Positions 1,339 through 10,568 of a stretch of 64,000 nucleotides of DNA are shown in pieces. Position 1 is the stretch's first letter. Every line of letters starts with the position of its first letter. The DNA comes from a virus (lineage: Duplodnaviria; Caudoviricetes), in IMG/VR virus record IMGVR_UViG_3300029288_004596, positions 128,001-192,000 of that record. The stretch is one strand, 5' to 3'. The translations under genes were made by a program, and so were the position numbers. The notes beneath the pieces are model-generated. The model was not told the DNA's origin, did not search any database, and was given only the letters and a program-made list of their open reading frames with translations.

Positions 1339-1527
1339 CAGGGAGTAGCTCAGTGGTAGAGCGCCTGTTGCAGTTCAGATGGTTAACCCTGACTGCAAGG
1401 ATTGCTATGGGGGAGATTCCACTGAAGGTATAATAGTTGACTGATCATCGCTACTATACTGGTTGGGGTTCCCATAGAGTCTTATGTAACATACAGGAGG
1501 TCCGGGGTTCAAATCCTTGCTCCCTGA
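1339..1527 (+). tRNA. tRNA-like gene with ~120-nt structured insertion in the anticodon loop (isotype undetermined)
   Basis: Acceptor CAGGGAG/CTCCCTG; D arm GCTC-AGTGGTA-GAGC; anticodon stem CCTGT/ACAGG; variable loop AGGTC; T arm CGGGG-TTCAAAT-CCTTG; 1369-1492 occupies the loop; no encoded CCA. Confidence 0.75.
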
Positions 1528-9569: not shown

Positions 9570-10568
9570 ATGGAAAGAGTTCTGGCTTCTATTAGGGAAG
9601 TGAGTGACATTGTCCCTATAGAAGGAGCAGATTTTATAGAAGAAGCTATCGTGGGCGGATGGCATGTCATAGTAAAGAAGGGCGAGTTCACCCCTGGGTC
9701 TCAGGGTGTGTTCTTTGAAATAGACAGCGTGTTGGACCCGGAGCTTCCTTGGGTAAAGGAACATGCTTCTTTCATGGAAGCCAGGTCTTGGAGAATTAGG
9801 ACCATGAAGATGAGAGGCGTCCTATCTCAGGGTCTTTTACTTCCTATGGATATACTTCCTGAGGTTCCAGAAAGTACAGACTGTACTGAATTGTTGGGGG
9901 TCAAGAAGTATGAGATTCCTGAGACTGTAGGCGACTTGACCAGCAGATCTGCTGGTCCATTCCCATCTTACATAGTATCTAAGACAGATGAGATAAGAGT
10001 TCAGTCTGTCATGGAAGTCCTAGATGAGCTATGGGGTAAACCTTATTATATCACTGAGAAAGCTGACGGTTCCAGCGCCACTTACCTGATGATAGATGGC
10101 AAGTTCACCGCCTGCTCCAGGAACCTTATGCTTAGAGAAGAGAGCGACTTCTACAGGGTGGGAGTGGAACAGAATATAAAGGGATTTCTGGAAGAGAATC
10201 CCCACCTGGTAGTTCAGGGAGAGTTTATAGGACCAGGAGTGCAGGGTAATAAGTACAAACTTAAGGCCCACAGCCTCAAGGTGTTTAATATCTTTGACAC
10301 TGGTCCAAGGGAGTACCTCCACTACAACTCTATAGTGGACTTCTCCCAGCATTATGGTTTTGATATTGTCAGACTCATGGCTTCAGGAAAATCCTTTGGT
10401 TTTTCTCTGGAAGAACTTTTAGTCATGGCCAAAGGCAAGTACCCTGGCACTAACAATGACATGGAGGGCATAGTGGTCAGGTCCTTGGAGAATATCTATA
10501 GCCCTACCCTTAGGGGTAGGCTTAGCTTTAAGGTCCTTAACAACAATGCCCTGCTTAAGGAGAAGTGA
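9570..10568 (+). CDS. RNA ligase (Rnl2-like, DRB0094-type with N-terminal OB domain)
   Basis: Motif I EKADGSS, CSRN, QGEFIGPGVQGN, EGIVVR, FKVLN; N-terminal I.PIEGAD.IE...R.RT.K.RGVLSQGL. Confidence 0.9.
   Translation: MERVLASIREVSDIVPIEGADFIEEAIVGGWHVIVKKGEFTPGSQGVFFEIDSVLDPELPWVKEHASFMEARSWRIRTMKMRGVLSQGLLLPMDILPEVPESTDCTELLGVKKYEIPETVGDLTSRSAGPFPSYIVSKTDEIRVQSVMEVLDELWGKPYYITEKADGSSATYLMIDGKFTACSRNLMLREESDFYRVGVEQNIKGFLEENPHLVVQGEFIGPGVQGNKYKLKAHSLKVFNIFDTGPREYLHYNSIVDFSQHYGFDIVRLMASGKSFGFSLEELLVMAKGKYPGTNNDMEGIVVRSLENIYSPTLRGRLSFKVLNNNALLKEK

Follow-up and report, generated by a model that had tools for sequence, protein, structure and literature searches.

A proline-type tRNA body with a two-hairpin module in place of the anticodon loop in a phage genome

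Phage genomes encode many tRNA-shaped RNAs that do not decode, and we know of no role assigned to them since the species 1 and species 2 RNAs of phage T4 were described. The genes of these two RNAs, which are not known to have a function, are rnaC and rnaD. Both are 120-140 nt long and are annotated within the T4 tRNA cluster (GenBank X03016). Species 1 ends in an acceptor-like stem and a canonical T arm, and its middle is not tRNA-like. The element described here lies at positions 1339-1527 (+) of the window, the whole 64-kb stretch of DNA that was analyzed. Like the T4 RNAs, which are found directly beside tRNA genes, it is phage-encoded. We found no sequence similarity between the two. The T4 RNAs lack a full cloverleaf (E 0.79 to the tRNA-Sec model), whereas the element is a full-scoring tRNA in which the loop alone is replaced.

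The engineered tRNA scaffold shares the layout of the element: a structured RNA, which may include three-way junctions, takes the place of the anticodon loop and is connected to the anticodon stem by a helix (PMC13755472). Inserts of up to about 300 nt are stable in E. coli (Ponchon and Dardel 2007, reviewed in PMC13755472), and the tRNA body provides processing and nuclease protection (PMC13755472). The scaffold is a laboratory design; the element, known here from sequence alone, would be a natural case.

The tRNAs of Lak megaphages carry introns that have been called "enigmatic" (Devoto et al. 2019, PMC6784885). Like the insert in our element, these lie in the anticodon region, have an unexplained splicing mechanism and are not classified by Rfam (PMC6784885). 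In the Lak and huge-phage cases the flanks give the anticodon of a normal tRNA and intron-less alleles exist, and one Lak intron is tRNA-shaped. In contrast, our element has an insert without tRNA shape, a body that does not agree with the "anticodon", and no known intron-less allele. Bacterial group I tRNA introns (RF00028; Williams 2020, doi 10.1101/2020.01.27.920355) resemble the element in their anticodon-loop site, the U before the junction and the terminal G, but the element has no match to the intron core, no junction U-G pair in the predicted fold, and an insert of only 117 nt by this reading.

Plant mitochondrial t-elements are non-decoding tRNA-like structures that serve as RNase P/Z signals and define mRNA ends (Forner et al. 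2007, PMC1920247). These tRNA-like structures lie within polycistronic transcripts and, like the element by our prediction, are unable to decode. The t-elements belong to a different biological system; their cloverleaves are degenerate and hold no large insert, and cleavage of the element is only predicted. In the YrlA-type Y RNAs, the stem that binds Ro60 is made from the two ends of the RNA and a loop closes the acceptor-like end, a topology opposite to that of the element. The tRNA-like domain of these RNAs is recognized by tRNA enzymes, and some are phage-encoded (Chen et al. 2014, PMC4201824). We rejected identity with YrlA or another Y RNA; the genome contains no Ro60/TROVE gene (PF05731) and there is no Rfam Y RNA match.

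When a 501-nt region was compared with all Rfam families (cmscan), 1339-1527 (+) aligned end to end with the tRNA family RF00005 at 46 bits (E 1e-8), above the gathering threshold of 29 bits. The alignment spans the full model (1-71), flags no non-canonical pairs and skips 123 nt within the anticodon loop. This is the sole RF00005 match in the virus record, which has a length of 216,899 bp and an estimated completeness of 93% (CheckV). With default settings ARAGORN predicts no tRNA in the window or the genome, and a scan of the window against Rfam at gathering threshold matched no family. The gene has the cloverleaf and the above-threshold score of the tRNA class (RF00005); the 7-nt anticodon loop of that class is absent from the gene and appears only after a hypothetical excision for which no mechanism is recognized.

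All arms of the tRNA body are on the plus strand and were delimited from the RF00005 alignment and the ARAGORN drawing. The 5′ strand of the acceptor stem, CAGGGAG (1339-1345), has pair probabilities of 0.99-1.0, and its C1 (1339) pairs with G1526. The D arm, GCUC-AGUGGUA-GAGC (1348-1362, pair probability about 0.85), keeps A14, G18, G19 and A21. The anticodon stem is formed by CCUGU (1364-1368) and by ACAGG, which is followed by a 5-nt variable loop, AGGUC (1493-1502 together). The T arm, CGGGG-UUCAAAU-CCUUG (1503-1519), includes two G-U pairs, and the 3′ strand of the acceptor stem, CUCCCUG, ends with the discriminator A73 (1520-1527, from the sequence and the RF00005 alignment). No CCA is encoded at the 3′ end, where a 4-nt trailer, AUAU, comes next. 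All 21 helix pairs of the body are standard and the tertiary-contact bases are intact. The original prediction, made by reading the sequence, described textbook acceptor, D, anticodon-stem and T arms, and all four are indeed intact in the 46-bit RF00005 alignment.

A C1-G72 pair together with A73 is a signature of bacterial tRNA-Pro, and the body of the element contains both. A blastn search with the 3′ half against 50,697 phage records returned almost exclusively annotated tRNA-Pro genes, from T4-like phages, the Serratia/Erwinia CHI14 group, Arthrobacter phage Racecar and Vibrio phage 172P1. We also compared the element with the unselected tRNA sets of two phages. The best match among the 22 tRNAs of Racecar is Pro(UGG), with a score of 44 (next 27), and the best among the 8 tRNAs of T4 is again Pro(UGG), with a score of 34 (next 19). 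The T arm (1503-1519) is near-identical to that of T4 tRNA-Pro. The anticodon stem, variable loop and T loop are common to the element and IMG/VR phage tRNA-Pro genes, and among IMG/VR loci the element best matches Pro(CGG/UGG). By these sequence comparisons, the exons are a tRNA-Pro body, nearest to the tRNA-Pro of T4 and Racecar.

The anticodon does not agree with this body. The insert is flanked by U/GCAG... and ...GUAACAU, and no choice of junctions gives an NGG anticodon (G35, G36); in a junction-pair scan, every obtainable 7-nt loop with U33 reads AAC. The Pro anticodon loops in the IMG/VR tRNA-Pro genes are UUUGGGA or CUCGGAU, and at least 5 of the 7 loop bases differ from the Pro loops. 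Because the flanks hold no NGG triplet in the loop register, the ancestral Pro loop was replaced, not simply split. Had an intron simply inserted, the old loop bases would flank it on both sides, and in the element those bases are gone. The 21 of 21 helix pairs that are standard despite the rebuilt loop argue for selection on tRNA shape. The pattern is a better fit to remodelling under selection for tRNA shape than to a split decoding tRNA or to neutral decay. The combination of a body that is of tRNA-Pro type, as judged from its closest matches, with an obtainable anticodon that is not Pro is a new finding of this analysis.

The two strands of the anticodon stem, CCUGU (1364-1368) and ACAGG (1493-1497), are separated by 124 nt. 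Minimum-free-energy folds place two hairpins here on the plus strand. Hairpin 1 (1369-1397, pair probabilities 0.86-0.99) has 6+3+2 pairs, follows the anticodon stem with zero unpaired bases, and has a loop that includes GGUUAACC. Hairpin 2 (1398-1483, pair probabilities mostly >0.9) forms a rod of 86 nt that is interrupted by internal loops, includes several G-U pairs and is capped by a CUGA loop. A 9-nt linker, AUGUAACAU (1484-1492), leads back into the anticodon stem; it is single-stranded in the minimum-free-energy and centroid folds and contains the AAC triplet that ARAGORN reads as an anticodon. Against mononucleotide shuffles the z-scores of the hairpins are -3.5 (hairpin 1) and -3.0 (hairpin 2), which we grade as moderate, and the whole insert has a z-score of -2.7 against dinucleotide shuffles. 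A structured insert of about 120 nt in place of the anticodon loop had been proposed, with two hairpins spelled out; the insert is real, both hairpins are well supported, and all of the proposed helices are present in the minimum-free-energy fold.

The insert occurs once in the genome, and searched alone against Rfam it matches no family at E up to 10. We tried and rejected several identities for it. A tRNA-shaped insert of the Lak type finds no support: the tRNA model, run on the isolated insert, gives no match at E up to 10, and the fold consists of two plain hairpins. Small self-cleaving ribozymes (hammerhead, twister, pistol, hatchet, and HDV-like) have no covariance-model match at E up to 10; the motifs CUGAAGG and CUGAUCA are each one base off the hammerhead CUGANGA box. 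A mobile repeat or MITE is not indicated, as the insert is unique in the genome, no inverted repeat is seen by eye at its ends, and the direct repeat is just 3 nt. There is a 21-codon ATG frame at 1380-1445 (+) (MVNPDCKDC...) that has no ribosome-binding site and is probably coincidental. An internal UUGGGGU (1463-1469) resembles the anticodon loop of a tRNA-Pro, but it lies inside a helix and no stem flanks it. A tmRNA was also rejected; ARAGORN finds none, and the third acceptor pair is G-C instead of G3-U70.

The element starts 5 nt past the stop codon of a gene for a 123-amino acid membrane protein. A second, mini tRNA-like element (1532-1599, +) begins 4 nt downstream of the first; it was recognized from the sequence, its fold and a weak match to the tRNA-Sec model (E 8.8), and is called by no tRNA finder. 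It has an 8-bp acceptor stem with a G-1:C73 pair in the style of tRNA-His, a CCA encoded directly after it, a D arm, and a T-like arm whose loop is 8 nt long. The anticodon arm is reduced to a short stem and tetraloop, UAUC-GACG-GGUA, and the helices are mismatch-free. Because this arm has shrunk to a tetraloop stem, the phage carries at least one other non-decoding tRNA shape. The likely start of the next ORF is the ATG at 1614, preceded by AGGTGA and 14 nt after the element pair. The two elements are tightly packed between ORFs, and no sigma-70-type promoter or intrinsic terminator brackets them. The neighboring genes are ORFans, and no defence or counter-defence gene was identified adjoining the element.

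We consider the best reading of the element, which we hold tentatively and with a little less than even confidence, to be a non-decoding, tRNA-scaffolded RNA derived from tRNA-Pro that also provides an RNase P processing site. The argument is built on a complete tRNA body (46 bits, all arms, tertiary-contact bases), on flanks that lack NGG in the loop register, and on an insert with no Rfam match, no RF00028, no bulge-helix-bulge (BHB) and no tRNA shape. It also draws on the adjoining mini element, which is likewise non-decoding, on a position 5 nt past a stop codon with the next start 14 nt after the pair and no promoter or terminator signal, and on the precedents of the tRNA scaffold, the T4 species 1/2 RNAs and the t-elements. 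The element has the traits of non-decoding tRNA-like RNAs: the elbow and acceptor are kept, the decoding loop is absent, and it lies inside a transcription unit. A tRNA-mimic non-coding RNA was one of two possibilities originally suggested, and with its full tRNA body and no intron hallmark the element fits it better than the other, an intron. We therefore regard a tRNA look-alike that does not decode as a likelier identity of the element than a tRNA that is spliced.

Because it has no promoter or terminator of its own, we infer that the element would be transcribed as part of the rightward operon. With its elbow of acceptor, T and D arms intact, it would recruit RNase P for a cut just before C1339, which lies 5 nt past the stop codon of the upstream gene; a second RNase P cut would be made before G1532 of the mini tRNA-like element. 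Host enzymes would then trim the 3′ end and add CCA, and no CCA-adding enzyme was detected in the phage record. The predicted product is a stable, unspliced RNA of about 190 nt with an L-shaped body. A Y-shaped module of two hairpins would replace the anticodon loop, so codons could not be read. Two roles are likely: the RNA may punctuate and stabilize the flanking mRNAs, and it may offer the hairpin module, shielded by the tRNA body, to a protein or RNA partner.

Some features count against the scaffold reading. Excision of 1370-1486 leaves a formally perfect 7-nt loop with U33 and A37, and there is a U before the junction and an intron-terminal G, a pattern shared with group I introns. The searches returned no homologue, and conservation and covariation therefore lend no support; the hairpin z-scores are moderate. 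Also, a mere processing signal would need no 124-nt insert.

Accumulation of the unspliced RNA would make it the natural equivalent of the engineered tRNA scaffold and give a handle on the partner of the hairpin module; splicing would make the insert a tRNA intron carrying none of the known splicing signals. It is an unusually clean case, in which a full-scoring tRNA-Pro body has had its loop alone swapped for a 124-nt structured module. A second anticodon-less tRNA shape adjoins it, in a phage without any decoding tRNA. The weight of the case is limited by the element being a single sequence.

Alternatively, the element may be a decaying remnant of a former phage tRNA-Pro, functionless since its loop was destroyed by insertion or replacement, with the mini element as a relic of a lost tRNA cluster. 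There is no working tRNA anywhere in the phage, and both tRNA-like elements are damaged exactly at the decoding site. The insert has no homologue or recognizable motif, and conservation was seen in no relative, which is also as expected for a remnant. Neutral decay, however, should strike the stems as well, and the helices of both elements are mismatch-free and the tertiary-contact bases are kept, although at least 5 of the 7 loop bases differ from Pro. The strong pairing of the insert, the way in which hairpin 1 abuts the anticodon stem with no gap, and the tight packing of the region between ORFs also speak against decay, and we consider a remnant unlikely.

We consider it similarly unlikely that the insert is an intron of a new or unrecognized kind, in which 117 nt (1370-1486) are removed by a ribozyme or by a nuclease and ligase (the phage Rnl or host RtcB). 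With introns allowed, ARAGORN predicts a tRNA-Val(AAC) with a 117-nt intron at 1370-1486 (+), which is preceded by a U and ends in G. Its removal would yield a tRNA able to decode, in which a body derived from tRNA-Pro carries the anticodon AAC and which ValRS would probably charge. The main identity elements of E. coli ValRS are A35, C36 and A73, and all three would be present. The loop, UUAACAU, is formally canonical (U33, A37; Val AAC), so the original prediction's statement that no clear anticodon emerges does not hold when ARAGORN is run with introns. We roughly estimate that random flanks would give some usable 7-nt loop about 1 in 3 times, and this reduces the weight of the canonical loop. 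A34 is rare in bacteria outside tRNA-Arg, and the intron reading would need it; the Pro-type body also disagrees with a Val anticodon. A Cys(GCA) reading was rejected, as it would place a G at position 33.

The signals of known splicing systems are missing from the element. Whether the 501-nt region, the isolated insert or the complete genome was searched, the group I intron model (RF00028) gave no match, even to its core, at E up to 10. At 117 nt, the insert is roughly half as long as the shortest group I introns of tRNA genes, which measure about 200 nt. A U before the 5′ junction and a terminal intron G are present, as exon and intron ends in a group I intron would be, yet in the predicted P1-like hairpin the U pairs with A and not with G. 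An exhaustive scan of junction pairs found no bulge-helix-bulge or relaxed HBh′ motif, with no pair that leaves a 7-nt loop exceeding 2 of 4 central pairs; an exact bulge-helix-bulge could not be fitted in the original reading either.

The phage does encode an RNA ligase (9570-10568, +), which has an N-terminal OB fold (Pfam PF21189, 1.2e-24) and an RNA_ligase domain (PF09414, 2.1e-21), and the nearest phage homologues of which are 33-39% identical. This is one nick-sealing-type enzyme and is genomic context of the element only. In the 93%-complete phage record we detected neither a splicing endonuclease (PF01974) nor RtcB, and also no AAA_33 or PNK3P kinase/phosphatase and no 2H phosphoesterase. 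None of our tests supports the proposal that the phage RNA ligase rejoins an intron here, with no group I match, no BHB, no healing enzymes detected and a Pro anticodon that is not restored. Unexplained anticodon-loop inserts in the tRNAs of Lak megaphages (PMC6784885), the 735-kb phage LR756501 and one IMG/VR contig do lend an intron some plausibility. The more specific proposal, a new class of small tRNA introns in a bacterial virus that has no group I core or BHB and gives a Pro-type body the unusual decoding anticodon AAC, is in our view quite unlikely; removal may use a ribozyme fold built from the two hairpins or a nuclease-plus-ligase route.

A decoy or sponge for a host factor (for instance a defence toxin that targets tRNAs) that binds the tRNA body or its 3′ end and not the anticodon is very improbable: the elbow and acceptor end are intact, a second, CCA-ending tRNA shape adjoins the element and phage-host conflict over tRNAs is well documented (PMC7824862), but no sequence pointer leads to any particular toxin, a single copy would have little effect as a sponge, we identified no defence or counter-defence gene beside it, and the classical anticodon nucleases, for which a decoy had been suggested, require an anticodon loop that this RNA does not display for cutting.

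We searched several collections for relatives. In INPHARED, megablast of 6 kb and blastn of 1300-1620 returned generic tRNA-exon matches only. IMG/VR was scanned with exact patterns for the exons with gaps of 5-35, 36-66, 67-97, and 98-128 nt, for the exact junctions, and for hairpin 1; these scans found only unrelated tRNAs, false positives and other anticodon-loop inserts, and no copy of the insert. Two exact patterns run on JGI/ENA metagenome contigs found no insert copy or insert-bearing relative. One exact-pattern scan of GTDB genomes gave intron-bearing matches only to DPANN archaeal tRNA-Thr with ordinary introns. The flanking proteins (123 and 173 amino acids) have no relative among 5.8 billion proteins except in the same phage. 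A contig of the source assembly that carries a flanking protein (one of three carriers was compared) is identical over 3.5 kb. In IMG/VR, the upstream 123-amino acid protein has no relative and the UvsX-like protein no close one. A similar element is absent from the whole records of the distant phages Moorella MTATph1, Mic1, LR756501, and S-CREM1. From these searches, the phage appears isolated in sequence space.

Moorella phage MTATph1 (OR602862.1) is the best UvsX match in the phage collection. The only tRNA-model match in its record, at 95128-95182 (L058 229-283, minus strand), is 55 nt long, scores 29.1 bits and is without a T arm. The codon usage of our phage is unusual at 44.8% G+C; ATA makes up 63% of Ile codons and AGA+AGG 93% of Arg codons, and NCG codons are rare, a CpG depletion. 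The phage encodes no tRNA-Ile or tRNA-Arg despite the dominance of ATA and AGA+AGG. This pattern may aid in placing the host.

The pattern scans and tRNA-model searches also brought up other genes with altered anticodon arms. As by-catch we found DPANN tRNA-Thr(UGU) genes in a Micrarchaeia MAG and metagenome contigs (L033/L043, L035) that have the same anticodon stem as the element and in which an insert of roughly 50 to 120 nt immediately follows the anticodon loop. The 735-kb uncultured phage LR756501.1 has tRNA-model matches of 88-118 nt, among them 207096-207213, 363384-363482 and 204246-204333 (L059-L061), and the inserts that ARAGORN predicts in these matches, 16-45 nt long, lie within the anticodon loop or next to it. 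A tRNA-like gene in IMGVR_UViG_3300035138_000052 (L026 776-841, minus strand) has 45 nt between the same anticodon-stem strands, flanked by AAT direct repeats. Seven IMG/VR viral contigs (L006, L007, L008, L011, L012, L018, and L019; e.g., L006 5547-5591) encode a CCA-ending tRNA body with the same anticodon stem, in which the loop is replaced by a 23-nt, GNRA-capped helix extension, GCAACGUCC-GCAA-GGGCUACGCC. The variants among these contigs include a G-C to U-G change in the stem, and the set looks like another family of anticodon-less phage tRNA look-alikes.
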